From Candidatus Woesearchaeota archaeon (GTDB lineage Archaea; Nanobdellota; Nanobdellia; Woesearchaeales; JACPJR01), in NCBI GenBank assembly GCA_016187565.1, contig JACPJR010000010.1, positions 68,596 to 132,595 of the forward strand: DNA of 64,000 nt, read 5' to 3'. The translations under genes were made by a program, and so were the position numbers. Position 1 is the first letter of the stretch, and each line of letters starts with the position of its first letter. A model generated the notes under the pieces. The model worked only from the letters and a program-made list of their open reading frames with translations, ran no database searches and was not told the DNA's origin. Below are positions 17,116 to 60,400 of this stretch, piece by piece.

Positions 17116-17148
17116 ATGCTGCTCCTTAATTCCTTGTTATTTGTGTGT

Positions 17149-17610: not shown

Positions 17611-17706
17611 GGTAACGCAGGAGAGTAACCTCTTTATTTAAATTTTGTTGTCCTCTAAGGTAAACGAAAGAAACATATAAATAGCCAGTCCCTCTTTTTC
17701 GTCTTC

Positions 17707-19468: not shown

Positions 19469-19469
19469 G

Positions 19470-36861: not shown

Positions 36862-36948
36862 TAGCCCCGCCCGGATTCGAACCAGGGTCACAAGGTCCAG
36901 AGCCTTGTATGATTGGCCTCCTTGATTTGGCCGCTACACTACGGGGCT
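36862..36948 (-). tRNA. tRNA (candidate tRNA-Gln, anticodon CUG) with an apparent ~14-nt non-canonical intron near the D-arm/anticodon-stem junction
   Basis: The minus strand reads AGCCCCG-TA-GTGT-AGCGGCCAA-ATCA-A-[GGAGGCCAATCATA]-CAAGG-CTCTGGA-CCTTG-TGAC-CCTGG-TTCGAAT-CCGGG-CGGGGCT-A. The A1:U72 acceptor stem is perfect, the T-loop is GTTCGAATC, and the 5-bp anticodon stem is perfect with U33 and purine-37. Removing the bracketed 14 nt gives a 73-nt canonical tRNA. The intron boundaries are my inference. Confidence 0.55.
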
Positions 36949-38734: not shown

Positions 38735-39703
38735 TTAACTATCGATATGCTTAACCATTAATTCCTGGACAATGTGTTGATTATAGTCGTAGGTAAGCCC
38801 AATGTTGACCTGTTTTTCATAATCACCGAGATCATCTATCTCCTGATTGCAGGTAATTGAGCGCTCTCCGCTATATAATTGGAAGTCTCCTTCATAGCCA
38901 CTGCCAACTGCTCTTCCATTCCTGAGACCACTACATTTGAGGTCTCCGTCACTTAAGCCAGTATCTATGGTTACATGGATCCAATCTCGTTTGCTGTAGC
39001 TTTCATCACAGGAGCTGCCAGTTTGATGGGGAGATCCTTCTCCTGCATGGGTAACGGTAAATATAAAACTCACTTTATTCTTGCTTGCTACATTTTCTCT
39101 AAACGCACTGACCTTTACCGGAGCACCAGAACTTTCTGCGATCTTTTCTTCGTTTGGATTACAGAATGCAGCAGCCTTTGTCGTTCCTAAAAGATCCTCA
39201 AGCACACAGATCTTTGAGTTTGCAAAAGTACCATAACTGTAGCATGCATCTGCTTTGATATTGAAGGTAACCTGGCCGCTGACATTTCCCTGATACTGGA
39301 GGTCGTCAAAGTTAAAATTAAGAATACTTCCTGGAATAATATTGCCTTCAACATCTTTATGTCTGCCACGCATATCCTCTTCGCTGCTTGTATTTAAGTC
39401 ATCCTGAGTTTTTCCAAAATCGCTTGGATCTATGCCGGTAATTTGTATGTTCACTTTTTCGATAGGAACGTCAAATTCACCCATATTCTCAACACGGAGA
39501 TTAATACCAAACGGGAAATCGTGATCAAAAACCTCTTGTGGAGGAGCTCCTTCAAGGAAATTCATATCAAGACCTTCACTGCCTCCGATAAATGAGCCCA
39601 ATACCTGGTTATTATTATCCTCTTGGGTGGTACATCCAACAAGTAAAATAAGAAGACTCAACAATGCAATAATGATAGATCTGGATACCATTCTCGATAC
39701 CAT
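38735..39703 (-). CDS. Secreted lipoprotein-like protein, paralogue family A (1 of 3)
   Basis: An N-terminal signal with an LVGC lipobox-like motif. It shares CNPNEEKIAESSGAPVKVSAF and a tail LTYDYNQHI with the two upstream paralogues. Confidence 0.55.
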   Translation of the reverse strand: MVSRMVSRSIIIALLSLLILLVGCTTQEDNNNQVLGSFIGGSEGLDMNFLEGAPPQEVFDHDFPFGINLRVENMGEFDVPIEKVNIQITGIDPSDFGKTQDDLNTSSEEDMRGRHKDVEGNIIPGSILNFNFDDLQYQGNVSGQVTFNIKADACYSYGTFANSKICVLEDLLGTTKAAAFCNPNEEKIAESSGAPVKVSAFRENVASKNKVSFIFTVTHAGEGSPHQTGSSCDESYSKRDWIHVTIDTGLSDGDLKCSGLRNGRAVGSGYEGDFQLYSGERSITCNQEIDDLGDYEKQVNIGLTYDYNQHIVQELMVKHIDS

Positions 39704-39770
39704 GGTAAAAATCCTCCTCTTTTGTTCTCAAGAGATGGGGTGTTGCCTCTATATAAATCTTTTGCTTTAC

Positions 39771-40784
39771 TTAACTCATCCGGGTTAACTCAGTGTTGAT
39801 AATGCGGATATCTTTTTTGATAGAGTCCATATACCCATATTCTAGGCGAACATTCAGCGCAGTGGTGAAGGCAGCAGTATTACCTTCACCCAAATAAAAT
39901 TTACAGTAAATGATACCTTCGCCATCGACGAGCGTGAGCGGAGAAGCCGGTTGGCAGGGACTCATAGGCGTTATTAGCGTACCAAGTCTTATATCATCAT
40001 AATAATAATGGACTTTATCCAATCCTTGGTACTTGAGCTCAAAGGGGCATGTTCCTGTAATCGGTGAAACACCACTCGATCTCCGTACACTGCCCACGTC
40101 AACAACTCGGCCGGTACCTACATTTTTAATTTTGATCTTTACTAACGTTGAACCTTGAAATGAGTCAACAGAAATACCGGTTACTGCAACCGGAGCTCCT
40201 TGGCCTCCAGTGGTTGCAACATCCTTAACCTTACATGCCTCATTCTCCATGATCTTTGTTGGATCCGGATCAACACAGAGCGAAATACTGGCATCCGTAG
40301 CATATTTGTAGCATGCAGTTGCCACAATTGTTGGTTTGTATTCGTCAATTTTTCCAAGGACCATACCCCCCGTGGTGTAAAATTTATCGCAAATACTGTA
40401 TCCGCCTTCAGGATTGAATAGGCTCTTTCCTTCGAGTTGCCCATTATTGAGACAACTAAAGATATCGCTACTTGTCGTGAACAGAGGAATGAGTATGGGA
40501 TCAAATCCCGAGAGATAAAGAATGCCATCATCAGGAGTTCGAATAGGTTCAGTCCCTTTATTTCGCACTTCAATCATGAATTGGAGATCTTGATCACTAA
40601 AGATGTTAGCAGGTGGATTGTCCTTCACGAATCGTAAGTCCAGTCCGACACTGCCGGTATGCACATCATACGTACGCTTATCATCCTCGTTTCCTTTGCG
40701 CTTAAAGGCAGTACATCCGGTAAGACTAATAATCATAATGATCAGGAGAAGATACATGAACATCACTCTTTTTTTCTTATTCAT
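39771..40784 (-). CDS. Secreted lipoprotein-like protein, paralogue family A (2 of 3)
   Basis: Signal ...SLTGC. The conserved block is ACKVKDVATTGGQGAPVAVTGISV. The C-terminus reads LEYGYMDSIKKDIRI. Confidence 0.55.
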   Translation of the reverse strand: MNKKKRVMFMYLLLIIMIISLTGCTAFKRKGNEDDKRTYDVHTGSVGLDLRFVKDNPPANIFSDQDLQFMIEVRNKGTEPIRTPDDGILYLSGFDPILIPLFTTSSDIFSCLNNGQLEGKSLFNPEGGYSICDKFYTTGGMVLGKIDEYKPTIVATACYKYATDASISLCVDPDPTKIMENEACKVKDVATTGGQGAPVAVTGISVDSFQGSTLVKIKIKNVGTGRVVDVGSVRRSSGVSPITGTCPFELKYQGLDKVHYYYDDIRLGTLITPMSPCQPASPLTLVDGEGIIYCKFYLGEGNTAAFTTALNVRLEYGYMDSIKKDIRIINTELTRMS

Positions 40785-41079
40785 GGCCGTGCCTTTTTTT
40801 GCTTTTTGGTTATTTGCTGTCTTTAAGACGGTTATGAGTATATAAGGATTTCGATTCGTGATGTGGTTTGCCAGTCCATAAAGAAACCAGAATCCATTTT
40901 ATTTTTTATTAGTAGACATTACTTTAAGTTTACTTTAACTTACTTTTTTGACTTAAATGAGCTAGTGAAGTTTAAGTATGTTCGAAAAATAGGCTCGTAT
41001 AGGGGAGCGTATTACATGATGGAGGAGAAGAAGTAAACTACGAATCTCCAGAAAATAAAACAAGCTGAGATTCTGTACG

Positions 41080-42405
41080 TTAGGATGAGGGCTCGCAGCA
41101 GATAATGTTTGCTGGGCCAGGACAGAGTCCGGTAAAGAATGGTGGGCTACAGGTACTCTCATCGATACATTGATAACTACTCCCTTTTTGCTCTTCACAC
41201 AAACTCTTTTCCTTGCTGCAACAAACTTCATCAGTAGTTGGGCAGGTCTTTCCCGTAATTTCTGTGCCATACGCCTTTGCACACACGTTAATATCTTTTT
41301 TTTGACAGTATCCGTCAGGAGGCTGGCAAGTCGTACCACTTTCAGGAGGGTTTTCATCAGGGTTTTGCTCTGGAGGTTGATCTGGGATCCATGTTGGTTT
41401 ATGTTTTGCTTTTATTGTTAGCTCTATCTCTTCAGAAACATACCCGTAGGAGAGTGTTATGGAAAGTGGCGTGACAAAACTTCCCTGATCCTTACGGATG
41501 GTCTTGGTACAGTAGGCCTTGGAGGTTGTCGGATCATCATAGGATTGAATGATGTTTGTGCAGTCGATAATCTCGCCAGAAAGCTCTATGGTTGCCTGTA
41601 CCTTGTCAAGCCCAGTTCTCGGAGCAATCGTCGTACAGGCGCTCGCGTACTGGTCAATACCGGTTACGAGGCCCTTACCTTCATTCTTAAAGTGAACGAC
41701 GAATTGTGCCTCAAACTCATTAGGATTTCCTGTGCTTACGATGGTTTCTTCAACCTTAGTTACGGCCACCGGTGCGCCCTGCCCTCCAGAGATAGCAACA
41801 TCCTTGACTTGGCATGTTGCCTTATCCTTGTTGGCATAGTCATACATAAATGGATCGATGCAAACCTCCACACTTCCTTGCGTGGTGTATGGATAACAGA
41901 CCTTTGCCTTGAAGAGAAAATCCTTCTCGACATCAGTCGGAATGCCTGTATTTCGAACGTCAAAAATTTCAAGCTGATAGCCCTCGGTCTGACTAAAGCG
42001 ATCCTTGCCTTTAACATTGATTATGGTGTTTTTCATGGTTTGTTGTTGGACAATTTCCATGTAATCAGAGAAACGCATAAGGGCAATAGAGCCATTGGTT
42101 ACCTCGGTGTAGCCTCTGTTGCTAATCTCAATACCTATCTGAAAAGGAGTAGGCTCTTCTGGCGTTCCTGCCCATATTTCTCTGGGAGTGATCTCATCCA
42201 GAAATGTGATGACTAAACCATCCCTTCCTGTCTTTTGCTCGAGTACTCTAATACTCGTATCGCCTTGGTTATCACGCTTTAGCCGCTGACAGCCAACAAC
42301 GAGGAGGACTATGAAAACTACGGTGAGGAGTAACAACATCTGAACTCTTCTTTTTTTCTTCATTCCTGACGACGTCTTCATGATGGTTATACGTTTATTA
42401 TCCAA
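41080..42405 (-). CDS. Secreted lipoprotein-like protein, paralogue family A (3 of 3) with extra C-terminal Cys-rich module
   Basis: Signal ...LLVVGC. The conserved block is CQVKDVAISGGQGAPVAVTKV. LSYGYVSEEIELTI is followed by a ~90-aa region with 16 Cys. Confidence 0.55.
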   Translation of the reverse strand: MDNKRITIMKTSSGMKKKRRVQMLLLLTVVFIVLLVVGCQRLKRDNQGDTSIRVLEQKTGRDGLVITFLDEITPREIWAGTPEEPTPFQIGIEISNRGYTEVTNGSIALMRFSDYMEIVQQQTMKNTIINVKGKDRFSQTEGYQLEIFDVRNTGIPTDVEKDFLFKAKVCYPYTTQGSVEVCIDPFMYDYANKDKATCQVKDVAISGGQGAPVAVTKVEETIVSTGNPNEFEAQFVVHFKNEGKGLVTGIDQYASACTTIAPRTGLDKVQATIELSGEIIDCTNIIQSYDDPTTSKAYCTKTIRKDQGSFVTPLSITLSYGYVSEEIELTIKAKHKPTWIPDQPPEQNPDENPPESGTTCQPPDGYCQKKDINVCAKAYGTEITGKTCPTTDEVCCSKEKSLCEEQKGSSYQCIDESTCSPPFFTGLCPGPANIICCEPSS

Positions 42406-42411
42406 ACCAGA

Positions 42412-45400
42412 TTAGCTAAAGCTTGGCATTTCTTTGGTGCTGAAGTCTTCATAATAATACATGACGCGTGCAACATGGGTACCTACTTCCTTTACTTTAT
42501 TCTTACGCATGGAATCATCCCATGCTTTTGTTTTACCACTAGAGGTAGTGAAGGTTCCGCTATAGCCAGGAAACTGAAGCAAAAATTCTGGTGTAATCTC
42601 ATGGTAGACTCGATCCCAGGTCGGATCTGCTTCACGTGTTTCAAGAATTGCCGTGGTAATAACTTTTTCACCAATATTGTAGGCAGCTACTGCAAATTTA
42701 TCCTGGTCTTTGTAGCCTACGTAACTCTTTCGCAATTTTGCAAGATAATTAACGGTTGCCTGGATGCTTCGATGGGGTACTGCTCGATTGTCTCGTCCCT
42801 TGACAAGCTCACATTGCTCATCGCAAGGCTCGCATGCTCCTCCACAACCCCTACTACTATCGTCACTCCTTGCACAGAGAAGATACGGTGCTTTTTGATA
42901 TTCACATGCAGTACTATAACAGAACTGTCCTAAGCCATAACAGCCTGTTGGCGAGCCTGCTTTGTAATTAAAGGCGGATTCCTGCGCAATTAGCCCAGCG
43001 ACTAAATCAGCACCTTTTTTTTCACTGGCATAACTTCCATCTTGAGAGACATAATCAAGGATGAGGTCGTAGTACACTCTATTGTCAGCAGTAGGATCTT
43101 GCGTTGTTATTGCTCGTTCCCACATACTCCCAGAGGCTGGAATGCCAATGGTTGCTTTTTCGGTGTCATAGAGCTCGGCATCAGGAACATCATGGGCAAC
43201 AATACTGGCAGAGGATTCTACTTCATAATCATAGCTAAGCGAAACATCAATAATTTCGCTGTTTAAATTATTCTGGTTTGCTAAAGCAGGTTGTCCTTGG
43301 ACTTCCAGCGTACAGTAATCTAATGATTTCTGTTTCCCGTATGCTATCTCTTCGAGACTTTTCTGGCTATACCGTTGCAATGATTCTTTCTTCATAGGGT
43401 AGGTGCATGTTTTTTGTTGGCAGATTTTGCTTGCTGGATCTAAGAGCTGGCAGTTTGTCGCTGGTACAAGCCATGATGGGATGGTAACACTGCCTGAGGT
43501 AAGGGCAAGAAGCTTTCCATTCGGAACCATATTCTCCACAGCAATCTTGAGCTTTACCAAGGTACTGTTTTTTACACCAACGACTACCCGTGGATCAGGA
43601 ACAACAATGAGCTTGATAAAGCCAGGATCTGATTTTGATTCTACCTTTCCTTTTTTGTAATCATTTTCAATAACTCCGGGAAATAATTGTTGGTATTTGT
43701 AAACCTCAGCAGCAACAAGATCCTCTTCTGTTTGATGCCGGGTAATACGTTTGTTGTACTCTTCTTCAGCGGTATTAAATTCAGGATCAGTTGTAAAACG
43801 TGTTTTCCACTCATCCAAGGCAGTTTGCTCAATAAAATAAAGCACGTATTTACTCTCCACCTTGAGTTGTCCGTCAGTCATGCGTGCATTGAAGGTAAGT
43901 TTATTAGCCCCATTTTCGAGACCAAGAGTTTGTTTCGGAAAGGTACAAATAACTACGGTGTTCTCCTTAGTTGCTGGTGGATTAGTGAATCCTTTTGGTA
44001 CGGAGACCTGCCATTCGGTGGGGTCGGCAAAAGGAGTATTTTCAGTATAGATATCCTCAACCTTACAACCAAAGCTGAAGAGCACATCTTGCGTAACGCT
44101 CACGACCGGATGGAAATCAACAAACACCGGATCTCCCTGGTAGACATCTATCGAGTAGCGAGGTGCAATAATGTCGACGGTAACTGCTTCTTCTTTTGTG
44201 GTGTCAATACCTCCGCTCAGTAACGGCTCTTGGCTTTTATTTTCCTTAGGCGGTTTGCCAAAGTTTTCGCATGCAGTGGCGTCTGCAGAAAAAAGTCCGC
44301 CAATACAGGAAACAGTGCTGCTCCAGAACAAACCAAGCTGGCTCTTGCTTACGGTTCCTTGGGCAATGAGCTGTTGTTGTTCATCAGGAAGATCAACATT
44401 TCCCATCCAGCCTTGGAATGCGCCTTGGAATCCCGGAGTAAAGAGCAAGAACACGACATAAGCAAACATATAGGTCGCCCAGATTTTTGTGGAGGGATTT
44501 TCCTTGTCCTTGAGCACCGTATCCCGGTAGAGGGCATCTATGATGATGTACCATGCCCAGAGCCAGGGGAATGCATAAATGGGTGCAATGAATATATTGG
44601 CTTCAATGCCCTTGACAAGGTTACTCAAGAGGCTTTGAATGTAAAACGTTGATAAGAGAAATCCCACAATGATAAAGGGTATTGATTTGAAGTCTCGTTG
44701 GTAGAAATAAAAAAACAAAAGCAAGGCAAAGATGAGATTGATCACCGGGCTGTATAGAAAAATAGTTACGTTTAGAAGATGAACCACCAGTGCTATGACC
44801 ACAAATAACCCAAAGGAACGAACAGCCCCGGTAATACCACTCTTCGCCAATCCAAAGCCACCTTTAATCCCTCCCCATGCTGTTTTTCCCCTTCCCTTCC
44901 AATTTTCTTTTTTTTCGGTTTTTTCCTTGTTCTCTTCATCACTTCTTTCTTCGTCCTTTTTTTTGATTTCGTCTTCAACATGCTGTTGTCTTGTGAGAAG
45001 CTCAATTTCCTTGAGTTTATCTTCTGGATTCGTTGAATTTCGTAATGCTTCTCGCTGTTCTTGAATCAAGGCAAGTTGCTGTTGTAATAGGCTCTTTTCT
45101 TGCTCTTCCTCTTGTTTATTTCTTTGGAACGCATCTTTAATCATACTACCCATACCAGCAAATGCCATTCTTTTATCACTGAAACTGCTTTCTGCAGATG
45201 CAGCGGTTTTAAGGAGATGGCCAAAGGCTTGTATCGAGAGATGCTTTTGTCGCGCATATTCTACCTTCTCCTGAGCATAGGCTCTCGATCTTTCTGCTAC
45301 TGCTCGGGCAGCGAATTTTCCTGTAGCATAGGCAGCCTTTCCCACATCTCGCGCACCATAATAACCCATGCCGGTTTCATGCATTCGCTGGGCTGCAGCA

Positions 45401-45906
45401 ACATCCCCTCCAAGGTGAGTCGCAAGCCTTCGCTGAATCTCAAGACCGTTTTTTATCTGTTTTGCTTTCCACTGTTTATACTCTTCAAGAATTTGGCCGA
45501 GAACACGCTGAAGTTCCTCATGACTCGTTTCTTCAGGAAGTGCGTTTTCAACTGCTCTGACGATCTCCCGTACATCAGCTTCAGGGATTTGGTGATCTGT
45601 GGTAATGACTTCGGAAAGCCCGACGATCAGCTCGCTTTTATTGACGGTAACTTTGCTTGATGGTGGAGACTCTTGCGCCCTCGCCTCTGCTGCCATTGCT
45701 CTTGCTATTCCTCGGGAATCTTCGGCAGAAAGAGTTCCTCCCTGTGCAGCTCTTCTGAGATCTGCATCAAATGCCGCATGGTCGTCTAACTTTGCTCGTG
45801 CCCTTGCGGTGAGTTCTGTAGTGTTATCATCACCTAAAACCCTTCTCTTGGTAACAACGTTGGGGTCATCCATCGTACGCTCTTTTTTCTTAGAGTTATG
45901 CTGCAC
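42412..45906 (-). CDS. Giant (1164 aa) membrane protein: N-terminal cytoplasmic coiled-coil/charged region, multi-TM segment, large extracytoplasmic region ending in a lytic-transglycosylase (SLT/lysozyme-like) domain
   Basis: The C-terminus LVAGLIAQESAFNYKAGSPTGCYGLGQF matches the SLT E-S-x-F-N...A-x-S...G-x-x-G-L-x-Q catalytic motif. The central segment has about 6 TM helices. The N-terminal 330 aa is rich in A/E/K/R and locally GC-rich. Confidence 0.6.
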   Translation of the reverse strand: MQHNSKKKERTMDDPNVVTKRRVLGDDNTTELTARARAKLDDHAAFDADLRRAAQGGTLSAEDSRGIARAMAAEARAQESPPSSKVTVNKSELIVGLSEVITTDHQIPEADVREIVRAVENALPEETSHEELQRVLGQILEEYKQWKAKQIKNGLEIQRRLATHLGGDVAAAQRMHETGMGYYGARDVGKAAYATGKFAARAVAERSRAYAQEKVEYARQKHLSIQAFGHLLKTAASAESSFSDKRMAFAGMGSMIKDAFQRNKQEEEQEKSLLQQQLALIQEQREALRNSTNPEDKLKEIELLTRQQHVEDEIKKKDEERSDEENKEKTEKKENWKGRGKTAWGGIKGGFGLAKSGITGAVRSFGLFVVIALVVHLLNVTIFLYSPVINLIFALLLFFYFYQRDFKSIPFIIVGFLLSTFYIQSLLSNLVKGIEANIFIAPIYAFPWLWAWYIIIDALYRDTVLKDKENPSTKIWATYMFAYVVFLLFTPGFQGAFQGWMGNVDLPDEQQQLIAQGTVSKSQLGLFWSSTVSCIGGLFSADATACENFGKPPKENKSQEPLLSGGIDTTKEEAVTVDIIAPRYSIDVYQGDPVFVDFHPVVSVTQDVLFSFGCKVEDIYTENTPFADPTEWQVSVPKGFTNPPATKENTVVICTFPKQTLGLENGANKLTFNARMTDGQLKVESKYVLYFIEQTALDEWKTRFTTDPEFNTAEEEYNKRITRHQTEEDLVAAEVYKYQQLFPGVIENDYKKGKVESKSDPGFIKLIVVPDPRVVVGVKNSTLVKLKIAVENMVPNGKLLALTSGSVTIPSWLVPATNCQLLDPASKICQQKTCTYPMKKESLQRYSQKSLEEIAYGKQKSLDYCTLEVQGQPALANQNNLNSEIIDVSLSYDYEVESSASIVAHDVPDAELYDTEKATIGIPASGSMWERAITTQDPTADNRVYYDLILDYVSQDGSYASEKKGADLVAGLIAQESAFNYKAGSPTGCYGLGQFCYSTACEYQKAPYLLCARSDDSSRGCGGACEPCDEQCELVKGRDNRAVPHRSIQATVNYLAKLRKSYVGYKDQDKFAVAAYNIGEKVITTAILETREADPTWDRVYHEITPEFLLQFPGYSGTFTTSSGKTKAWDDSMRKNKVKEVGTHVARVMYYYEDFSTKEMPSFS

Positions 45907-46018
45907 AAAAGTTTATAAATTTATGCATCTCATGGAGGAAGTATAATGCACGAAAGTATGGATTTTTGTGCATTATGGTATTTGGTGTGATATTTCACGT
46001 ATACAAACCGTTGAGAAT

Positions 46019-47233
46019 TCACTCATCATTATAGACATAGACAACCATACGGGGGACATCTAAGCTAATACCGTCTGGCTCGATCTTGATCCAGTTATTC
46101 TCCTGTCGATCAACGTAATTGGTGATAGAGCGTTCATAGAAAGGGTCTCTGGTGTCAATGTAGAAGAGCCTGCCATTCACACTAATGCGGGCAGCATGGT
46201 CCTGATTATCATCAGGAAATTCCAAACTCATGTTTACTTCCAAAAATCCATCTCTGACATCCTCAAATTCTTCAGTGCTCAAGGAAAAATAAAACAAGGG
46301 ATAACGGAGCTCTTTTAAGTGAGTGGTTATTTTAACTTGATCGATAAGATAGGATCCACGTTCAGTACGGAAACGGATACTGTTCTCTCCCACGTCCAGA
46401 TATGCCGGAGAAAATTCAAGAGGACGACTGGCACCACAATCGGGAATGCCGCTGAAGACTTCCTGATTATTGATGTAGGCGTGCAGCACACCAACCTGCC
46501 CGGTTGTACACTCAGCTGAAAATCGTAAGGTTGCTTTGTCCATGTTGTACTGCTCTGTTGCTGAAATAAGGAAAATATTTCGTGCTTCCTGGCGTGAAAG
46601 ATCGGTAATGTCACCAGTTACTTTGATATTTTCAAGCAGATATTCGTTTGTTTTCCAGAATTTCCAGCCAACGCTATCAACGGTAAACTCTAAGAGGTTG
46701 TTCCGTTGAAGGTATTCTTTCGGTAAGCTTATGGGGGCTGGATTGACACTTGTTAGTTCGTTACTTAAGAGCGTGTACCCATTGAGTTTAATAGTTAGAA
46801 AGCCTTGTGCACGTTTGACAGTAAAGGAGAGAAGGACATTATCAGTATTTTCAGGATCATCAATGGCAAAGCTCAGATTTGCAAATTTTTGATCTAAAAC
46901 TCCATTCTTCACATAAACACTGTTAAATTCTTTGATGCTATTGGCCTCTGTTCGCGTGGTGACAAAAACTGAGGGTACGGTATGTTCATATTCTTTAAAT
47001 TTAAGGTAGTCTAGTCTTCCGACTCGTTCATCAAGCACAAGACGTTCATAGTCTGGCGTGAATTCACCCTCTCCTTCGCCTCCACTTGGCTCGTCGCCGA
47101 AGAGTTCTGCCCGTTCCTTACCTGGTAAGAAGACAACATACAGAACAATGAGGAGGGTAATAATAAGAATGAGAACCGCTGCCTGTGAACCGCTTGGTGG
47201 TTGTGTCACTGCCCCTTTTTTTGTAGCAAGCAT
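46019..47233 (-). CDS. Secreted / membrane-anchored hypothetical protein (first gene of the minus-strand surface cluster)
   Basis: An N-terminal hydrophobic anchor (AAVLILIITLLIVLYVVFL), then a 370-aa beta-rich ectodomain. Confidence 0.5.
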   Translation of the reverse strand: MLATKKGAVTQPPSGSQAAVLILIITLLIVLYVVFLPGKERAELFGDEPSGGEGEGEFTPDYERLVLDERVGRLDYLKFKEYEHTVPSVFVTTRTEANSIKEFNSVYVKNGVLDQKFANLSFAIDDPENTDNVLLSFTVKRAQGFLTIKLNGYTLLSNELTSVNPAPISLPKEYLQRNNLLEFTVDSVGWKFWKTNEYLLENIKVTGDITDLSRQEARNIFLISATEQYNMDKATLRFSAECTTGQVGVLHAYINNQEVFSGIPDCGASRPLEFSPAYLDVGENSIRFRTERGSYLIDQVKITTHLKELRYPLFYFSLSTEEFEDVRDGFLEVNMSLEFPDDNQDHAARISVNGRLFYIDTRDPFYERSITNYVDRQENNWIKIEPDGISLDVPRMVVYVYNDE

Positions 47234-48809: not shown

Positions 48810-51800
48810 ATGGAACTCACACACAAAAAAAGGGGTTGGACCAGAGAAACTTCTCAAAGATTTAACGGGATTGTACGGCTATCTTTCTTGGTGACGATAT
48901 TTTTAATATTTTCTTCACTTTTCTTTATCTTTTCGATGCCTTCGGTTAAGGCAGCATCATGTTTTAGCGAAGATAGTTGTTATGATGGATGTTCTGGGTA
49001 TAGTTTGAACGACTGTTACTTTGATGCTGACCACGATTGTCAGATAGGATCCTCTGATAATTGCAAGGATTGCTCTTGTAGTTGTGGAGGCTACCCTAAT
49101 ACAGGAAGCTGTGCTACTGAAGATGTAGTTTTTGGTCCGACATATTATTCGTGCGGGGATAGTTTTGATAACGATGGTGATGGAGATGAAGACTGTGCAG
49201 ACGACGACTGTACAGACAAAGAATGTGGCGGGGGAAATGTCTGTTTTGAAGGATCCTGTGTAGGTGGGCTTGGCCTCGTGTGTACATGGTACAATGGTGT
49301 TACTCCTCTTGCGGATTGCAATGGAGTGAATTGGTGTAACACAACTTACACGCTCACTGACCCCTTTCAATTCATGTTTCCATTTTTCAATACTACCCCA
49401 TCTGCGCCAGTTCCTTCATGTATTATTAGTGCATCAGGAAGAGCTGATAATTTGCAGGGTATTTACATGAATGTTACCCTTAGTGGGGATTGTACTGGAG
49501 ATAACTGTCCTACTGAAGGAGATCTGACTGAACCATGGTGGGAACCCTTTCCCCCATCCCTTACTGCACGAACTCATACGTATGATTTGAGTGATGAAGA
49601 TGGTGTACCAGAACATACAAAACCATTTGATTGTTCTCTTCCTGCCTCGGTAAATGTTACTGAACAACCTGGCTATTTTACTAATCCGAATTGTTGTGGT
49701 GATGGTACGAACGTTTCTGATGCCCTTGCTGATCAAGGTATGATTGCGAATATTTCGAATATTCCTATCTCTCTTTGTGTTCGTCAAGATGTTGATCAGA
49801 ATGCGCTTCAGGATCAAGATACGTATGTAGGGGGTACAGGATGTCCTTATCCATTAGGCAGAAATCCTGGCATTGAGACGCAAGGTCCATGGTTATGGGA
49901 GCAAGCATCGGCGCTACAAAACCTGTGGAAGATCTATACAATAAATCTTAATGAATCTTGCTGGCAGATTCCCAAACCGCAGGGGGCATTTGACCGTCCT
50001 GTTTATGATGTTATAGGATGGGGTGCTACAAATAATCCTCAATGGATTGCATGCGATCCTTTTGGAGCATTTAATCTGAGCAAGAGTCAGCGTGAAGGAC
50101 AGGCTCCGGGTTTAGATTTGGGAAATGCAAATTCAGGAATTACCGTAACACCACCTCCTGATCTGCCGGAATCTGGAGGGGGTAATGGGGGTGTTGTCCC
50201 CGATGCTGGATTTTTTGAGGATCTTGGTATCCATATACAATTCCCTAAAAAAACATACGATGAGGACAAAAGTGCATGGATTTCCTGTCTTCCTGACGCA
50301 GGATCTGGAAGGAATCTTACACGAATTGTTTGTGAAGGCAGTGGTTTTGAAGGTGATGCTATCCAAGCAAACAGTTCCTTCTTTACGCATAATGAAACCA
50401 GTCAAGGAACGGGAACTTTCCATCGAGATGAGCTGTTGAATAACAAAGAATTTAGCAATTTACCAATATATTTTAATGGTGACTTACAAAAGGGATATCA
50501 TAATCTTACCCTCCAGACAAACGGAACAAATAGTAGGGCCTATGTTTTTGCAAGTCAATATCTTGTATTAAGCGATACTACGGAAGACGAGCCTGTTGGG
50601 TCTGATACTGATAGGGTCATCTGCTACGATGAAGGTAATCGTGGATCCTGGGCAGTGTGTTGCGGTTACTCTTATGCAGATTGTCCAACAGAAAATAATG
50701 GGTTATGGGATGTGAATGCTAACCCTAATCCTAAAGTTAAGCGATCCGGTGAGGTTCTGGGGTCTGTTATTGATTATTATAACTCTGATGATCCGTCAGC
50801 AAATTACGTCTTGAAGTTATGGATTGCTACGGCAAGAATAGACCAAGAGTCTGGGTTTATCTATGGACTCATAAATGATGTTGCTCACTCGTTCAACAAC
50901 AATCCTAATGATGATTATATGGATGCGCCTCTTCGCATTACTAACTGGAAAAATTATTCTTTCCTTGAGTTTGATATTGCTTTTACAACCACTGATCTAT
51001 GGAACATTACTATTTTTGATAGTGCTGCTTATCCTATTAGTGATGACATTTTAACTCAAGAATCACAACTTAATCTCCTGCAATTTAATATCTCTTATCC
51101 ATCAAAAGCCCCTCTTTTTAATCGTAGAATCATTGACTACTCTACTGATGGGAATGAGCTCTATGAATGGCACCATATTAAAATTCCACTTCCACCATCA
51201 CTTAAGCAAGAGGACATCTCCCTTATTATGTTTGTGGGTGATAGAGAGGCAATCAAGAATGAAGTACATTATCGTTGGGGAAAGCTTGACGTATTTAATA
51301 TTGGAGGAAATACAGCAGCAGTTTTTGGTTTAGATCGGATGTATCTTTCTCGGGATAGTATGAGTTACACTAATAACACGTTCTGTAGCGGAGGTGGCCG
51401 ATGGATTGATGACCTTGATGAAAGCGCCTTAGCTTGTGATAATACCGCTAAAACTGCATGGACAGGCTCTCAGTGTTGCGGAGATGATCCGCATGAATAC
51501 TATGCAGATCCAGCGGGCTTACATGCCTGTTGGGATGGAAGGATTGTACCACACGACACACGGATTATGCAGGTTGACTACACCGTTACCGGGTCCTCAA
51601 CAGAGTCTCATGCCTGTAAAGGATACAATTCCTTTATCAGTGCGACTGCGGAAGAAGATGCAGAGGAATTTGTGAATGCCTGTTTGTATCCGATGCCGAG
51701 AACAGGTAGAGCTCTTTATACTGTAGCTAATCCTTACACGGAACTTTACAATGTATCTTTCTTTGCCGCAGAAAATGGCGCTCAATATTTTAGTCAAGCA

Positions 51801-54023
51801 ACTACCGACAGTGCATTGGTTGCCGTCCATGATGTGAAAATGCAGGTGCTTGCAAACAATGGAAACTTGTATGGCTGCAATGCCTCTGATTATGTTATTG
51901 ATCATGCTGGCTCCGGAGTTATTCGAGAGAGTATTCCTTGCGAGGTCAAAGGATCATGGTTCTGCTCTGGCACAAACCAATGGTTAAATAAGAGCGATTC
52001 CCGATATACGCTTGGTGAAACTGAAGTCATGAACCTAACAGCCATTCCGTGGGAAATTCCCTGGTATGATCCAACACCTCGTGCAGAATGCTGTGGCAAT
52101 AATGCCTGTTGGAATGGGACAACTTGTCAATCAGAATATACGTACTTTAACCAGACAACAGATGAGGGAAATGATATCTATGTCTGTAAAGCAAGCCAGT
52201 GGTATGGCCCTGTTCCGTTGAAATGGGACTGGGATCATGATCAAGCAAGCTTCTGCTGGAACAATACCCAATGCTTTTGTCCTTACGATGATGATAAGTG
52301 TGATCCTGTCGATGATCGTAACTGTGTTGATGAGAACTATTTTTATCGTGATAACTTTTGCCTGTCAACCGGATGGAACGGCACAGCTTATAATGATAGT
52401 GTCTGGACCACGCGAACTGCCTTATTGGCCACACAACTCTTGACCTTTGTCAACCGTACCAGTTCAGATAATTATACCCTTTTCTGTGATTACTATAACT
52501 TATCAACCAATTATTGGGGCGAAACAGAGATTTGGAATGGCCCTTTTTTAGGTTTAGAAGGACTCAATAATTATTGTGTTCTGAACTACGAGACTGGTGA
52601 AGGTTGGCGTGTCATTGTTGGTGCAAGTTTATGGGAGAGTGAAGGGTATACTGTTCAGAATTTCCTTGACGAGATCCTTCAGGAAACTCCGACAATTTGT
52701 GATAATGTAGGGAGCACAACATTCGAGGAATGTGCTGATGGAGAACTGATCATGGCGTACTGGAATAACCAAACGAAATCTATGCTTTTTGCAGAGGAGG
52801 AATTACATGGATTCTCTTTAGAACCAGGTGATAAGCTTGTGCTCAACGGTGGAAACCTTCTTCAGAACTTTAATCTCTTTTTACAGTTTGTCTTTGCAAA
52901 GATACGGAATACGGCTACGCATCTCTTAGGATTACAGGGAGAAGAGACACAGCATCTTGCGGTTGCTGAAGACTTTGACAGGCTTTACCTCTTCAAAGAA
53001 AATCAGAAGGAAATAAAAGGCATGGTGCGTGAGGATTTGGATGGAAAATATCTGCTCGTATCATATTTCAACGCAACAACCGATATCTGTAAAGCAGTAC
53101 AAGCGTACAACATCTTGAATCAAGGTATGGGTGGAAGTCCTTTTGCCTGTAATGTAAGCGTTTATGAAGATGATAGCTGGTCGTATAATGTTGTTACGAG
53201 ACGTAATAGCAGTCCTGAAGAGTGGTCGTATCTCATTGGTCTGAATGCATGGCCAAGCTTAGGTGCAATGTCTCGTCTTGATGTGGCTGATTTCGGATAT
53301 GTTCCCACCATGGCTTCTATTAACGCTGAAATCATCGAAGGTCAGGCGCTCCTTACCTCGTTTGAGTTTGAAGCCGTTGTTGCTGGAACTGCGCCGGATT
53401 CATATTTGTGGGACTTTGGTGATGCTTCGCAAGGTACGGGAAAGACCATAACCCATAACTATGCAATTGCAGGATCCTACAATGTAACTCTGAATGCTTC
53501 TTATGATGGGCGTATCATTCAGGACAGGATTGTGGTTACAGTTCGTGAGCCTGCATTAGACTGTACGCTCCGAAGCACTGCTTGTAATAACGAAGAGGTC
53601 GGCGTCTTATCACTTTTAGAGCAGACAAATTCGCATATATTTACCTATGATCCGAATAGTGAATACAATATTTGCTGTACACCACCAACCTGTCAGCTTA
53701 AGGTAACAACACCCCCTAGTACTTGTGGATCTCTTGCCTGTATTACTGCTCTTACTCAAATGACTGGTTCAGGGGAAGGCTCTCATGCTGCTCTTTGCGA
53801 CACAGCTGACTTAGATCATGTTTGTATGGATGTTACTAATTGTGGTGCTTATGATTTGAGCTGTAACCAGGAAGATCAGAGTGAAGAAGGTTGGGAAAAT
53901 TGGGGTGCTTGTACAACGGGAAGCTGTGTAGTAACCATTTCATCAGATGGAACTCACCTGTCAGGTTGTGACTACTATCCCTTCCCTGTTTCAGTCTGTT
54001 GTGGACTGAATGATGATAACTGA
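48810..54023 (+). CDS. Giant (1737 aa) secreted Cys-rich surface protein with PKD domain near the C-terminus
   Basis: An N-terminal signal/anchor. About 110 Cys and many N-x-S/T sequons. PKD signature: SYLWDFGDASQGTGKTITHNYAIAGSYNVTLNASY. A C-terminal Cys-rich tail. Confidence 0.7.
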   Translation: MELTHKKRGWTRETSQRFNGIVRLSFLVTIFLIFSSLFFIFSMPSVKAASCFSEDSCYDGCSGYSLNDCYFDADHDCQIGSSDNCKDCSCSCGGYPNTGSCATEDVVFGPTYYSCGDSFDNDGDGDEDCADDDCTDKECGGGNVCFEGSCVGGLGLVCTWYNGVTPLADCNGVNWCNTTYTLTDPFQFMFPFFNTTPSAPVPSCIISASGRADNLQGIYMNVTLSGDCTGDNCPTEGDLTEPWWEPFPPSLTARTHTYDLSDEDGVPEHTKPFDCSLPASVNVTEQPGYFTNPNCCGDGTNVSDALADQGMIANISNIPISLCVRQDVDQNALQDQDTYVGGTGCPYPLGRNPGIETQGPWLWEQASALQNLWKIYTINLNESCWQIPKPQGAFDRPVYDVIGWGATNNPQWIACDPFGAFNLSKSQREGQAPGLDLGNANSGITVTPPPDLPESGGGNGGVVPDAGFFEDLGIHIQFPKKTYDEDKSAWISCLPDAGSGRNLTRIVCEGSGFEGDAIQANSSFFTHNETSQGTGTFHRDELLNNKEFSNLPIYFNGDLQKGYHNLTLQTNGTNSRAYVFASQYLVLSDTTEDEPVGSDTDRVICYDEGNRGSWAVCCGYSYADCPTENNGLWDVNANPNPKVKRSGEVLGSVIDYYNSDDPSANYVLKLWIATARIDQESGFIYGLINDVAHSFNNNPNDDYMDAPLRITNWKNYSFLEFDIAFTTTDLWNITIFDSAAYPISDDILTQESQLNLLQFNISYPSKAPLFNRRIIDYSTDGNELYEWHHIKIPLPPSLKQEDISLIMFVGDREAIKNEVHYRWGKLDVFNIGGNTAAVFGLDRMYLSRDSMSYTNNTFCSGGGRWIDDLDESALACDNTAKTAWTGSQCCGDDPHEYYADPAGLHACWDGRIVPHDTRIMQVDYTVTGSSTESHACKGYNSFISATAEEDAEEFVNACLYPMPRTGRALYTVANPYTELYNVSFFAAENGAQYFSQATTDSALVAVHDVKMQVLANNGNLYGCNASDYVIDHAGSGVIRESIPCEVKGSWFCSGTNQWLNKSDSRYTLGETEVMNLTAIPWEIPWYDPTPRAECCGNNACWNGTTCQSEYTYFNQTTDEGNDIYVCKASQWYGPVPLKWDWDHDQASFCWNNTQCFCPYDDDKCDPVDDRNCVDENYFYRDNFCLSTGWNGTAYNDSVWTTRTALLATQLLTFVNRTSSDNYTLFCDYYNLSTNYWGETEIWNGPFLGLEGLNNYCVLNYETGEGWRVIVGASLWESEGYTVQNFLDEILQETPTICDNVGSTTFEECADGELIMAYWNNQTKSMLFAEEELHGFSLEPGDKLVLNGGNLLQNFNLFLQFVFAKIRNTATHLLGLQGEETQHLAVAEDFDRLYLFKENQKEIKGMVREDLDGKYLLVSYFNATTDICKAVQAYNILNQGMGGSPFACNVSVYEDDSWSYNVVTRRNSSPEEWSYLIGLNAWPSLGAMSRLDVADFGYVPTMASINAEIIEGQALLTSFEFEAVVAGTAPDSYLWDFGDASQGTGKTITHNYAIAGSYNVTLNASYDGRIIQDRIVVTVREPALDCTLRSTACNNEEVGVLSLLEQTNSHIFTYDPNSEYNICCTPPTCQLKVTTPPSTCGSLACITALTQMTGSGEGSHAALCDTADLDHVCMDVTNCGAYDLSCNQEDQSEEGWENWGACTTGSCVVTISSDGTHLSGCDYYPFPVSVCCGLNDDN

Positions 54024-57435: not shown

Positions 57436-60400
57436 TTGGAAATGGCTACTGACAAAAAAGTAACTTATTGGAAAAGAGGGTCCATGAAAGCACAAATAAC
57501 GATGTTTATGATCCTTGGTATTGTTATTCTGGCAGCCTTTGGTTTTGTCTTTTACGTGAATGAAATCATGTCTCAGATACGCTTGCAGCATAAGGTCGAC
57601 CAAATCATGGAAGATGTATTGGAGACAACAGCGCTTGATTATTATGTGACGATTTGTCTGGAGTCTGCAACTCAAGAAGCATTGGCAATTGCAAGCTTGC
57701 AGGGTGGGCGAATCTATGAAACACAAATCCCAGGAACAAAGCAGTTTCAAGGTCCACCTTCCTTGGCGTATGGTTCTTTTGTCCTTCCCTTGAACATGTC
57801 TCAAACAGTTTTTGGTGAGAACGCAACGCTGATCAATGTGAGTTATGGTATTGCCCGCCCTAATCTCACCGTTAGTCAATGGCATCCCGACGTGCCATAC
57901 TATCCTTATTTGCAAGACAGTTATACATTCCTCGTTGAGGATCCTCAAGCTTATGATACCCGATACAAAGATACCTTGGGTAACTTTAGACGACCAGAAC
58001 ATATCCTGCCAGCACTCTGTGACCGCTATGGTATGAATGCACTCCAGTCCTTCAATTATAGCGCTAATGGAACGAATTATACAGTTTGGGTTCGTTGCCG
58101 CGAGAGCTGGTTTGATACCGTCAATACCAGCGACCATTCCTCTATTCAGGAACAACTCCAATTTGCCATTGCGAATAAAACGCGAGCATGTGTTGACTTC
58201 CCTACCTTGTCAGCCTATTTTGGCCTAAACATCACTGAGGGAAACATTACCAGCAAGATTCTTTTCTCTGATGCTTATGTAGATTCTTACCTTGATTATC
58301 CCTTAGTGTTTTCAGTTGCAGGTCGTGAGCCCATCACAAAATTCTTGACTTTTGCCACTCGTCAGAATATTCGTTTTATGTATGTTTATGACACTGCTAT
58401 GCAGATCATTGAAGCAGATACCAACAATGTGTTCTTTGATATGGTTACTGATGCCTATTCATTAACTCGAGGAGGAAAACCTTATCTCCAAGAAGGCATG
58501 ACGGTTTTTAAAGAGGTTCAGCCCTGTAAGCGCTATGATCTCTGCCCACAAACAGGAAATTATTCTGACATCTATGTCATCCAGGATAACAACTCGCTTA
58601 TTGATGGAAGGCCTTTGCGCTTTCAGTTTGCCATTGAGAACAGAAAACCCGCGCTTAATTATATCACCTTTAGCAATTACTCAGGAGTGTATGATCTCAT
58701 TCTTCGCGAAAATGAAACTATTGTTATTGATCCCTATGCCTATGATCCTGATGAGGATTTTCACTCCCCGCTGTTTTTAGACCTCTTCAATAGGACATAT
58801 ATGCTTGATTATTATGTTTATCGGGGCTGGAAGGAAGACTATGATGAATGGTTTGATTTCTCCTGCTGCATTCCTCCGATTGGATCAGGAAGTGTTAATT
58901 GTACTGATGACACTCTTGCATCTCAGTGTGTTGTTCGTAATCTCAATGCACCACAACAATGGTCTACCTCTTCACTCTTCCAACAGACCAGCCGTTCTGC
59001 AAATTACAATCTTACCTTGAATGATACCGGTCCTCATGAGGTGAGCGTCTATGTCTTTGATGAAGAGAATGGGTCTTTTGATTATCAAGACATAACCATC
59101 TTGGTGATGGACACTGCACAGGCACGACCAAATGGGTCAAATGAGTATGATGACATCCCTGATAATTATGCCTCGATCGAAGATCGCTATATTCTCGATG
59201 CTACACGCTCCCTTGCCGTCTATAGTCCAACAACATGGTTCATGTGGTTTGATGAACAAGAGGCAACGTACCTCTATCAGGGTCCTGAGCCATTGGTTAC
59301 CATTCCTCAAGGAGCTACGATTCTGAATATGTCCTCGTATCCCTTTACTCGTCCTCTTCCAGGTATTGACACCAGTCCTCTTAATCACACTATTAATCTC
59401 TCGGTAAGCTCCTTGGGAAGCCCCTTTCATTCTGCCATCATGAATGTTTCGGTGTTTTATTGTTTACCTCATCGAACTGAAACAGCATCATTTCCGTACC
59501 ATAATCTTTCCCTTGCTTCCTATGTTGGGAGAAATTACAGCTCTTTAGATGACCCATTCCAAGCAAATCATGCCTGTTGTAGTGATGATGCGGTTATGTA
59601 TGGAAGTTATACGTTGGGAAACAGTTGCTTTACCTACGAGGAATACGGAAGTCATTATTCCTTTAACAATGATCTTTTCCTTGCCTCATCGTTGCCCGTG
59701 TCACCGTCGACGTATACGGTAACTTATTATGACTTGGCCGGTGGCCAAATTGCACAGGGGCCTATCACCCTCCCGATCATGCTGCTATACCCTTACGACA
59801 ATGACCTCTATCAACGATCATTTGAACGCAGCTGTGATGGTACTCGCGGTAATGTTTGTCAGGGAGCTGCAGACGAAAAACGGGAAAGTATTGCAGAATG
59901 TCCTGACAAACTAGAACCATGGTATGATGAACGTTGTTCTGGACCAGAAGAAGCCTATCGAAACACGGCAAGTGCAACGCCCTTAGCATGTACACAGTAT
60001 ATTACAGGAAAAACCTTTGAAAGCATCTTTCAAAATGGTCAGGGAAACTGCAGTCATGATCGTGTGTGTACGACTGGCTCTGGTGCGGGAAAGTACCATT
60101 ACAACACCCCTTCAGGTCGATTTTCTTGTGTTGGTCAATGTGGGAGCTCGGGAAACTGTGATTATGGAACAGCATGTTACTGCGATCAGAGTTGTGGAGC
60201 GAACTCGTACTGCAATCAGAAACAGCCAGGATATCGTATTGGCAGGTGTGACCAGGTAGGGCAGGTTTATTTTGAAGATAAATGCACGAATGATTGCCTG
60301 TTACAGGATACCACGCCTGTGTTTAAATGTACGGGCAGTTGTTCCTGCACTGAACCACAATGCGACGGTCATGTTGCAGGGGATGCGTTAGGGGTCTGTA

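Follow-up and report, generated by a model that had tools for sequence, protein, structure and literature searches.

A conserved five-gene surface locus of Woesearchaeales with exchangeable peptidoglycan hydrolase modules

Murein is a polymer that a Woesearchaeal archaeon is not expected to make, and the question raised by the locus described here is what a membrane-tethered lytic transglycosylase (LT) would act on in such an organism. Attack on bacterial walls by large SLT proteins of Woese- and Pacearchaeota has been proposed, and for Woesearchaeota this role is already published and not new here (PMC8204110, PMC9723730, in their passages on these proteins). The giant protein of the present locus (g1164) and the published large SLT proteins (fam00969) come from the same phylum and share the SLT/GH23 catalytic family, and our reading shares with the relevant passages of both papers the hypothesis that the walls of bacterial hosts or prey are bound or degraded. 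Those passages cover the domain and protein size, and contain no five-gene locus, polytopic scaffold or alternation of SLT, GH73, Amidase_2, M23 and NlpC/P60; the conserved locus and the swapping of hydrolases thus appear, as far as these passages go, to be undescribed.

Position and conservation of the locus

Open reading frames were called across the window (the whole 64-kb stretch of DNA analysed). Five ORFs on the minus strand (38735-47233) lie between RFC-small/PRC-barrel and Pelota, and all members of the originally predicted five-gene surface cluster were recovered (Table 1). Genes nearby encode the RFC small subunit (matched in NCBIfam at E 8.5e-140), Pelota (at E 8.3e-78), a PRC-barrel protein and DNA primase, in keeping with the earlier view of the genome as archaeal, here that of a DPANN archaeon; a protein identical to g1164 is on record under 'Candidatus Woesearchaeota archaeon'. 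Pelota is divergent and RFC-small convergent to the five genes, and the GC content of the locus equals that of its surroundings. The g1164 start was taken at a GTG (1164 aa), whereas the NCBI record begins at Met12 (1153 aa); other gene callers place the g441 start 8 codons later (433 aa versus 441 aa).

Orthologous loci (labelled L007-L015, L093 and so on) were compared with the window, and the same gene order was found in L007-L011 and L013-L015. In a GTDB survey, which takes in only genomes with the exact peptide GGQGAPVAV (invariant in a 9-sequence alignment), the complete order pelota/g404/scaffold/three paralogues/rfc was present in 42 of 80 species-representative loci, most of the others being cut by contig ends. 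In 52 of 61 GTDB loci the gene immediately upstream of the scaffold is the g404 orthologue. The five genes are therefore kept together, as a proposed check on the conservation of the block had asked, and form an order-wide chromosomal core locus of Woesearchaeales, near-universal in the order and positioned among housekeeping genes. No energy source, channel or secretion component was found in the locus, and no genes for an ATPase, coupling protein, relaxase, integrase, capsid or terminase were found in the locus or its flanks.

Table 1. Coordinates of the five genes and of the regions of the scaffold protein in the window
Feature	Position	Strand	Description
g404 (gene 1)	46019..47233	-	404 aa; N-terminal membrane anchor and ~360-aa ectodomain
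g1164 (gene 2, scaffold)	42412-45906	-	1164 aa
Scaffold aa 1-357	44836..45906	-	charged helical/coiled-coil region
Scaffold aa 358-495	44422..44835	-	polytopic membrane block, ~five TM segments (hydropathy scans)
Scaffold aa 496-935	43102..44421	-	predicted extracellular region
SLT/GH23 domain, scaffold aa 942-1159	42430..43083	-	predicted family-1 lytic transglycosylase
Glu976 codon	42979..42981	-	predicted catalytic acid, IAQ-E-S
g441	41080..42405	-	first lipobox paralogue, 441 aa; predicted lipobox Cys39
g337	39771..40784	-	second lipobox paralogue, 337 aa; predicted lipobox Cys24
g322	38735..39703	-	third lipobox paralogue, 322 aa; predicted lipobox Cys24

Predicted architecture of the five proteins

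The three downstream genes had been described as paralogous, lipoprotein-like and sharing a GAPV block, and each of these points was borne out. Paralogy was detected by BLASTP (g337/g441 E 6e-20; g322/g441 E 1e-9; g322/g337 E 8e-8), and the block GGQGAPVAVT is common to the trio, with QGAPV invariant or nearly so across 59 aligned family members and SSGAPVKVS as the variant in g322. Each protein begins with a signal peptide that ends in a lipobox-like L/V-x-G-C with a conserved Cys (LLVGC in g322, SLTGC in g337, VVGC in g441); in the 59-sequence alignment this Cys (Cys24) is invariant and Cys pairs are conserved. Archaeal lipoproteins carry the lipobox [L/V/I][A/S/T/V/I][G/A/S]C, are processed by the AliA/AliB pathway and have been reported as prevalent among DPANN archaea (PMC12462473), and g322, g337 and g441 are accordingly predicted from sequence to be lipid-anchored. 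g337 consists of an N-terminal helix and two beta-sandwich domains with the block between them, and g441 of two beta-sandwich domains and a Cys-rich C-terminal extension (aa ~340-441). Structural matches of the trio fold are to generic Ig/macroglobulin/CARDB-like tandems; no significant match was found in PDB sequences, Pfam, NCBIfam or PHROG. Orthology is position-specific: the best BLASTP matches of g441, g337 and g322 fall, in that order, on the first, second and third of the genes downstream in L007-L010 (for g322, L010 E 7e-79, L009 2e-63, L008 1e-59).

Upstream of the giant protein, the further anchored ectodomain protein that had been expected was found in g404, which has a single hydrophobic segment (aa 18-36, by hydropathy) and two conserved Cys. 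Its orthologues in L010, L009 and L008 were matched by BLASTP at E 1e-112 to 1e-79, and it had no Pfam, NCBIfam, PHROG or PDB-sequence match. The N-terminus was compared with class III prepilin-like signal peptides, in which the hydrophobic helix directly adjoins a [KR]-[GAS] cleavage site; g404 has a conserved [KR][KR][GAS]Q, 4-12 small or polar residues and then a hydrophobic stretch, and no peptidase or assembly ATPase of such a pathway is encoded in the locus.

Hydropathy and Pfam agreed with the original prediction for g1164 of a coiled-coil N-terminus, a multi-TM core, here of about five segments, and a C-terminal SLT motif. The charged, helical or coiled-coil N-terminal region contains 61 K+R, 59 D+E and no Cys, is predicted to be cytoplasmic, varies in length among orthologues and, in an alignment, is missing from L008 and L009. 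The TM segments (~358-380, 381-401, 407-427, 433-455 and 473-493) form a block conserved across the core family (jackhmmer, alignment), and would give an N-in, C-out topology. Residues 1-533 contain no Cys, and all 16 Cys of the protein occur after residue 534, beyond the TM block; together with the invariant lipobox Cys and conserved Cys pairs of the trio, this supports an extracellular location. The ectodomain was modelled with AF2 (mean pLDDT 84.6) as a first beta-sandwich (aa ~564-693), a helical insert (~694-749), a second beta-sandwich (~764-905) that closes with LSYDYEV, and then a disordered linker (~909-940). Its beta parts gave generic structural matches only (e.g., integrin, RbmA), and hhalign aligned it with the trio family (P 8e-4, 105 columns, common LxYxY ending), which makes paralogy with the three lipoproteins probable. 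A word-indexed homologue search with the full 1164 aa returned the protein itself and one 77% relative only, and with a core-only alignment no match, probably through swamping by TM or low-complexity words; the scaffold family was revealed by exhaustive search of representatives.

Pfam SLT (PF01464) matched the C-terminal domain over aa 967-1093 with an E-value of 3.3e-12 and 46.4 bits, the cut-off being 21.3. The match includes IAQESAFNYKAGSPTGCYGLGQF (aa 973-995), and three SLT motifs were recognised: Glu976-Ser, GLGQ (aa 991-994) and AYNIG (aa 1075-1079), the second being an M-to-G variant of the GLMQ of most subfamily members. A phmmer search of PDB sequences with the C-terminal 262 aa returned nothing at E<=0.01 and a family profile was needed, which matched MltC (6e-19) and Slt70 (5e-15). 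When aligned by HMMER profile, the family Glu falls on the Glu of MltC (which the 4cfo chain sequence shows as Gln) and on that in the Slt70 QES, and a Glu at the catalytic position is conserved in all SLT-bearing members aligned. The predicted structure has a lysozyme-like all-alpha fold superposable on solved LTs, with MltC, MltE and MltF as best structural matches, so that the structural comparison suggested for this domain came out in favour of the original assignment. By sequence, motifs and predicted fold the domain is a family-1 lytic transglycosylase, with predicted activity.

The LTs that it most resembles differ from it in setting. Slt70, MltC, MltE/EmtA, MltF and MltD have an endogenous substrate, whereas the host of g1164 is an archaeon without an expected one; what tethers the domain is a protein of five TM segments and two beta-sandwiches, in place of the lipoprotein anchor of bacterial family-1 LTs; and a Cys-rich insertion (aa ~996-1040) with flanking TGC...QFC cysteines marks a DPANN-specific subfamily. 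Relatives with TGCxGLMQFC and the Cys-rich insert numbered 168 at E<=1e-3 among 1.84 billion representatives and reach 3526 aa. All those with an organism name are labelled Woesearchaeota, DPANN group archaeon or 'archaeon', which points to a long-resident archaeal lineage of the domain.

C-terminal modules of orthologous scaffolds

SLT occupies the scaffold C-terminus in the window, L007, L011 and L012, and the corresponding position carries M23 in L013, GH73 in L014, NlpC/P60 in L015 and Amidase_2 in L093. More than half of the species-representative orthologues (33/61) stop at the end of the core and have no C-terminal module; Pfam assigned SLT to 6, GH73 to 3, Amidase_2 to 1 and M23 to 1 of the 28 tail-bearing GTDB orthologues, and ~11 more of the 61 scaffolds have non-hydrolase tails (e.g., Cys-rich or Ig-like domains). 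Three 'SLT-like' tails (P0105, P0123/L010 and P0175) have no Glu where the canonical E-S motif expects one and may be inactive. The L010 tail (P0123) was not accepted as SLT, being matched by neither Pfam nor the SLT HMM; tails of the P0123 group match L040/L042, themselves Pfam SLT matches, and through this indirect link it is possibly a divergent, inactive SLT-like domain.

In a neighbour-joining tree of scaffold cores, which is rough, has no support values and is used qualitatively only, the SLT-bearing core of the window falls within a group of cores that bear M23, and in two further clades SLT-bearing cores alternate with GH73-bearing ones; this interleaving indicates repeated swapping. 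The sole thing that SLT, GH73, Amidase_2, M23 and NlpC/P60 have in common is murein as substrate. Five unrelated murein hydrolases at one scaffold position make bacterial-type peptidoglycan the likely target on comparative grounds, and the earlier proposal of an SLT domain with no endogenous substrate, aimed at the wall of another cell, gains support from the four other families at the same locus. Since 33 of 61 scaffolds are tail-less and ~11 more carry non-hydrolase tails, the primary function of the locus cannot be peptidoglycan cleavage. Judged from these comparisons, wall cleavage is an accessory function and the hydrolase an interchangeable addition to a surface platform that is itself conserved. 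The original prediction of an envelope-penetration or attachment apparatus accordingly stood in part: a conserved surface block and hydrolase modules were found, but the tail-less scaffolds and the lack of an energy source, channel or secretion component place a 'penetration apparatus' beyond the evidence.

Candidate function and alternative readings

The reading to which we incline, with somewhat better than even confidence, is a conserved Woesearchaeal surface platform with an exchangeable effector slot, filled here by an LT acting on the peptidoglycan of a contacting bacterium. The platform would comprise the polytopic scaffold, three lipid-anchored paralogues with two beta-sandwiches each and the N-anchored g404; assembly of the five into one complex is proposed from gene linkage and paralogy. 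The scaffold would run from a cytoplasmic N-terminus through some five TM segments to two beta-sandwich domains outside, and its membrane-distal end, reached by a flexible linker of ~30 residues, would be the slot for exchangeable modules, holding in the window genome an intact family-1 LT with Glu976 as predicted catalytic residue. Because the enzyme would stay anchored in the membrane of an archaeon that would have no murein, its substrate could only be the peptidoglycan of a bacterium in direct contact. MurNAc-GlcNAc glycan strands would be cut locally at the contact site, and the opening may help the archaeon to attach, to reach the membrane or nutrients of its partner, or to kill it. Against this reading, a tethered enzyme would first have to cross the outer membrane of a diderm target, a route that the locus does not explain.

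Peptidoglycan hydrolases are associated with several machines, among them PrgK, TraG of pIP501, TcpG and CwlT in Gram-positive conjugation, FlgJ/SltF in flagella, EtgA in the T3SS, phage virion-associated lysins and T7 gp16. EtgA, gp16, a Tn916-like hydrolase and phi29 gp13 were among the structural or sequence matches. Such hydrolases are likewise tethered and thought to cut a local hole, not to cause bulk lysis, and at their business end, as on the scaffold, SLT, M23, NlpC/P60/CHAP, GH73 and amidase are interchangeable. They mostly act on the producer's wall or arrive by virion, whereas the scaffold would have to act in trans on another cell, from a chromosomal core locus in which genes for a channel or a secretion ATPase are lacking. 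Modular hydrolases with which archaea kill bacteria by attacking peptidoglycan have also been described (PLoS Biol 2025, PMC12352652), in a study that found archaeal murein hydrolases (including M23) prominent and diverse in Nanoarchaeota, with domain shuffling and an antagonistic role, and one haloarchaeal M23 enzyme was functionally studied. Those enzymes are secreted, combine catalytic with wall-binding domains and are patchily distributed; in contrast, g1164 has no recognised wall-binding domain, its module is fused to a conserved membrane scaffold and its locus is not patchy.

A structural envelope (e.g., an S-layer-like or anchoring lattice of beta-sandwich modules), with opportunistic hydrolases that scavenge peptidoglycan fragments or necromass as food, is rather unlikely, although it would account for a near-universal locus amid housekeeping genes, for the predominance of scaffolds without a hydrolase and for the generic fold of the trio, many archaeal surface-layer proteins being built of Ig/macroglobulin/CARDB-like modules. 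Recycling of cellular compounds by Woesearchaeota, discussed in a passage of Vigneron et al. (PMC9723730), would fit it as well. A membrane-tethered enzyme on so short a linker is ill-suited to dispersed debris, however, and the repeated exchange of five hydrolase types, interleaved on the core tree, looks more like diversifying selection at an interaction interface than like an enzyme of nutrition. Abundant coat proteins, moreover, usually vary far more in both sequence and position.

Remodelling of an endogenous murein- or pseudomurein-like polymer, with the membrane-bound LT acting on the archaeon's own wall as do bacterial MltA-F, is very improbable. The anchoring and the best structural matches do resemble bacterial membrane-bound LTs, but the literature regards murein transglycosylases as enzymes that Archaea normally lack and as alien to the archaeal envelope (PMC8204110). 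Mur-type synthesis genes were absent among the scanned part of the ORFs of a window of only 64 kb, a weak argument, and the hydrolase-free majority of orthologous scaffolds is incompatible with an essential autolysin at this locus, a role that was rejected. Amidase_2 (a MurNAc-L-Ala amidase) and lysozyme-type GH23/GH73 also target bonds absent from pseudomurein.

That the scaffold is a VirB1/PrgK/TcpG-like or phage tape-measure/ejection-like hydrolase of a conjugative system or provirus is scarcely credible: SLT, M23, NlpC/P60/CHAP and GH73 are mixed in Gram-positive conjugation hydrolases and virion-associated lysins, and matches to PHROG 'endolysin' and 'internal virion protein with endolysin domain' and to T7 gp16 in PDB sequences were obtained, but these are limited to the SLT domain, the mobile-element genes sought are missing from the locus and its flanks, the GC content is that of the surroundings, and a fixed Pelota/RFC-small position in at least 42 species representatives is unlike mobile elements and essentially refutes such an origin.

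A broader form of the surface-platform reading is held only tentatively and is, taken whole, doubtful: the locus would encode a long-sought, order-universal contact organelle of Woesearchaeales, a heteromeric assembly of four double-beta-sandwich paralogues and g404, its distal slot armed in each lineage with a murein hydrolase or adhesin-like module according to the wall of the current bacterial host, so that module identity would predict host type and the usual partners would be bacteria, not archaea.

Woesearchaeales are among the most widespread uncultured archaea. To the published notice of their large SLT proteins and the guess of bacterial hosts made with it, the present analysis adds a positionally fixed, order-wide five-gene locus, the alternation of five mechanistically unrelated hydrolases in one slot and the many lineages that are hydrolase-free, and it nominates four further locus proteins as candidate parts of a cell-cell interface. 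A single-domain curiosity thereby becomes a testable system whose comparative pattern points to bacterial peptidoglycan as substrate, and the exchange or omission of hydrolases suggests that these tiny archaea may attack bacterial walls on contact. Module type is a genomic marker whose correlation with bacteria found alongside could serve to predict hosts, and, if the platform really mediates contact, archaeon-bacterium pairs might be enriched, labelled and imaged by cryo-ET by means of it.

The five-gene locus and its conservation

Five minus-strand ORFs were confirmed as real at their coordinates, as originally predicted (table below; genes are named by length in amino acids). Intergenic gaps from g322 to g404 were 67, 295, 6 and 112 bp. 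The locus was flanked on the low-coordinate side by genes for the RFC small subunit (NCBIfam, E 8.5e-140), a PRC-barrel protein and a VIT1 protein, and on the high-coordinate side by the divergently transcribed Pelota gene (E 8.3e-78). An archaeal chromosome is confirmed by genes for DNA primase, a RadA-like protein, TruD and diphthamide synthase in other parts of the window, and GC content of the locus (0.41-0.45) was the same as that of its flanks. A public record on a 197-kb contig carries the g1164 protein, identical and annotated at 1153 aa from Met12, as 'transglycosylase SLT domain-containing protein [Candidatus Woesearchaeota archaeon]'.

Features of the locus and of the surrounding window
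Feature	Coordinates	Strand	Description
g322	38735-39703	minus	ORF, lipobox paralogue
g337	39771-40784	minus	ORF, lipobox paralogue
g441	41080-42405	minus	ORF, lipobox paralogue
g441 aa ~340-441	41080-41385		Appended Cys-rich module, CxxxxxCCxxxx-type
g1164	42412-45906	minus	ORF, scaffold
g404	46019-47233	minus	ORF
Low-GC stretch	~11800-20000		GC 0.34-0.37
Thioredoxin_4 protein	24558-25289	minus	DsbA-like
tRNA	36862-36948	minus	Rfam, 50 bits, 87 nt; not reported by ARAGORN
1737-aa protein	48810-54023	plus	Secreted, very Cys-rich; just past Pelota
1163-aa ORF	57436-60927	plus	No Pfam match; overlapped by opposite-strand 266-aa ORF

A 77%-identical relative (L007) held the same genes plus an inserted AAA_14/DUF4143 ATPase gene, located between the g404 and scaffold genes (L007 8678-9928). 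In 7 distant relatives (L008, L009, L010, L011, L013, L014, L015), a single strand likewise carried a g404-like gene, the gene for a polytopic scaffold and three paralogues of ~315 aa, adjoining Pelota and/or RFC-small/PRC. One genome per GTDB species was then searched for the peptide GGQGAPVAV, with genes assigned by locally built HMMs and ORFs called mechanically; the survey, which covers only genomes with the exact peptide, yielded 80 loci, all from Woesearchaeota/Nanoarchaeota-type MAGs. The complete order pelota(-) g404(+) scaffold(+) trio x3(+) rfc(-) was recovered in 42/80 of these species-representative loci, bearing out the earlier guess that the genes are conserved as a block; most of the others were interrupted by contig ends. 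The g404 gene lay directly upstream of the scaffold gene in 52/61 cases and three paralogues directly downstream in 54/61. Many survey records (e.g. L018, L023, L025; binchicken/SPIRE-type assemblies) are titled 'uncultured Methanosarcinales archaeon', a suspected taxonomic mislabel.

Searches of Pfam, NCBIfam, PHROG and PDB sequences returned no match for g404. At the N-terminus of g404 and 49 orthologues (L016-L093), a conserved [KR][KR][GAS]Q motif and 4-12 small residues precede a hydrophobic helix, AAxLIxIIxLLIxLYILFLP. The layout is similar to that of archaeal class III (prepilin-like) signal peptides without fitting the typical form.

Elsewhere in the window, the 1737-aa protein (one PKD domain, 35 N-glycosylation sequons) was outside the conserved locus in relatives. 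The tRNA may be of the archaeal type that contains an intron, and the low-GC stretch, encoding SIR2_2-like, Schlafen/AlbA_2-HATPase_c_4 and MazE-like proteins, may be a defence island.

Scaffold architecture and the lipobox paralogues

Residues 1-357 of g1164 were charged, helical and free of Cys, residues 358-495 contained ~5 hydrophobic segments, and 16/16 Cys followed residue 534, a distribution that fits an N-in, C-out topology. Residues 540-1164 were modelled with AF2 (pLDDT 84.6) as beta-sandwich 1, a helical insert, beta-sandwich 2 (ending LSYDYEV), a disordered ~30-residue linker and an all-alpha domain. Beta-sandwich 2 aligned with the second domain of the paralogue family (hhalign P 8e-4, 105 columns), taking in the VENxxxGKI/IxNVGxG strand and the terminal LxYxY motif. 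The scaffold ectodomain and the trio are thus likely, though not proven, to be paralogous.

The trio g322, g337 and g441 are paralogues of one another (BLASTP E 6e-20, 1e-9, 8e-8). A search of a 5.8-billion-protein collection returned 87 cluster representatives of the family; those with a named organism were all Woesearchaeota, Nanoarchaeota or unclassified 'archaeon' (GW2011_AR16). Across 59 aligned sequences, the lipobox Cys (Cys24 of g337) and several other Cys were invariant, and the QGAPV block invariant or nearly so. According to published work, lipobox proteins are prevalent among DPANN archaea, and archaea are now known to possess a pathway for lipidation, AliA/AliB (PMC12462473). Distant relatives hold a position-specific orthologue of each member, so the triplication is old. 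The Cys-rich module appended to g441 seemed, by eye, to be repeated several times in its 636-aa L010 orthologue (L010 8051-9961), and the L008 scaffold has it as its C-terminal tail; it looks like a further mobile extracellular module within the locus.

An exchangeable C-terminus

By profile and predicted structure, the C-terminal domain of g1164 is a family-1 lytic transglycosylase. It matched Pfam SLT (E 3.3e-12), and its AF2 model, on which the structural check of the original prediction was passed, returned MltF in Foldseek at probability 1.0. The family profile matched MltC (6e-19), Slt70 (5e-15), T7 gp16, MltE and MltF, the family Glu aligning with the catalytic Glu of MltC and Slt70; the g1164 motifs are IAQ-E976-S, GLGQ (991-994) and AYNIG (1075-1079). 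Only 168 relatives of the subfamily, which is marked by (I/V)IAQESxGNPxAxSxTGCxGLMQFC and a Cys-rich insert, reached E<=1e-3 in a set of 1.84 billion representatives; where an organism was named, it was from Woesearchaeota, a DPANN group archaeon or 'archaeon'. The window's Thioredoxin_4 protein could form disulfides in the genome's numerous extracellular Cys-rich proteins.

Pfam scans of scaffold orthologues identified five murein hydrolase families behind the conserved core (table below), comprising two glycosidase types, an amidase, a metallo-endopeptidase and a cysteine peptidase, which are mechanistically unrelated. The M23, GH73 and NlpC/P60 examples checked for genomic context were in the same locus.

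Hydrolase modules carried by scaffold orthologues (Pfam)
Module	Scaffolds
SLT	Window, P0002, P0095, P0110, P0115, P0145, P0154, P0161, P0168, P0192; L040-L043, L076, L084
Peptidase_M23	P0090, P0091, P0092, P0096, P0195, P0232; L060
GH73 glucosaminidase	P0236/L014, L045, L047
NlpC/P60 plus CHAP	P0203/L015
Amidase_2	L093 (E 6.9e-30)

Among 61 species representatives, the scaffold ended <=40 residues past the core in 33 and carried a tail of 139-483 aa in 28. A Pfam murein hydrolase was present in 11/28 tails and a divergent SLT-like tail in ~5 more; the remainder were Cys-rich or other tails. In a rough NJ tree of scaffold cores, built without support values, hydrolase types were interleaved: the SLT scaffold of the window fell inside a group of M23 scaffolds, and two other clades alternated between GH73 and SLT.

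The divergent tails (P0105; P0123, L010/L061; P0175, L022) were not detected by Pfam and were connected to SLT via L040/L042. They retain GLMQ/GLMG-like and KCGFSxYKGW motifs, have no Glu at the position expected from the canonical E-S motif, and may be catalytically dead, binding-only derivatives.

Substrate and function of the locus

Five unrelated enzyme families with only a substrate in common alternate at one orthologous position, strong comparative evidence that the scaffold module would act on bacterial-type peptidoglycan; the substrate argument of the original prediction is supported on this ground. Fusion of the enzyme to a membrane protein means that any action must be contact-dependent; as no murein is expected in the archaeon itself, the peptidoglycan acted on has to be that of a bacterium next to it.

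Earlier publications describe large proteins with SLT domains in Woese- and Pacearchaeota and propose that these attach to or break down the walls of bacterial hosts or prey (Castelle et al. 2021, PMC8204110, citing Rinke 2013 and Castelle 2015; Vigneron et al. 2022, PMC9723730). Diverse peptidoglycan hydrolase homologues, M23 among them, have likewise been noted in Nanoarchaeota (PMC12352652). The SLT observation is therefore known. The system context appears new: a full-text search of incomplete coverage turned up no account of the five-gene locus, of its fixed position or of five hydrolase types replacing one another on a single scaffold.

The locus had also been read as a dedicated penetration or attachment apparatus. 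The penetration reading is corrected here, since the tail-less majority of scaffolds shows that the conserved function is something other than the module's activity. Rival accounts are a coat structure with a scavenging enzyme; an endogenous autolysin; and a mobile-element module, which the fixed, GC-matched position of the locus speaks against. Most economically, the locus would encode a platform on the cell surface that displays variable distal modules where two cells meet; this platform may be a hetero-oligomer built from paralogous beta-sandwich modules.
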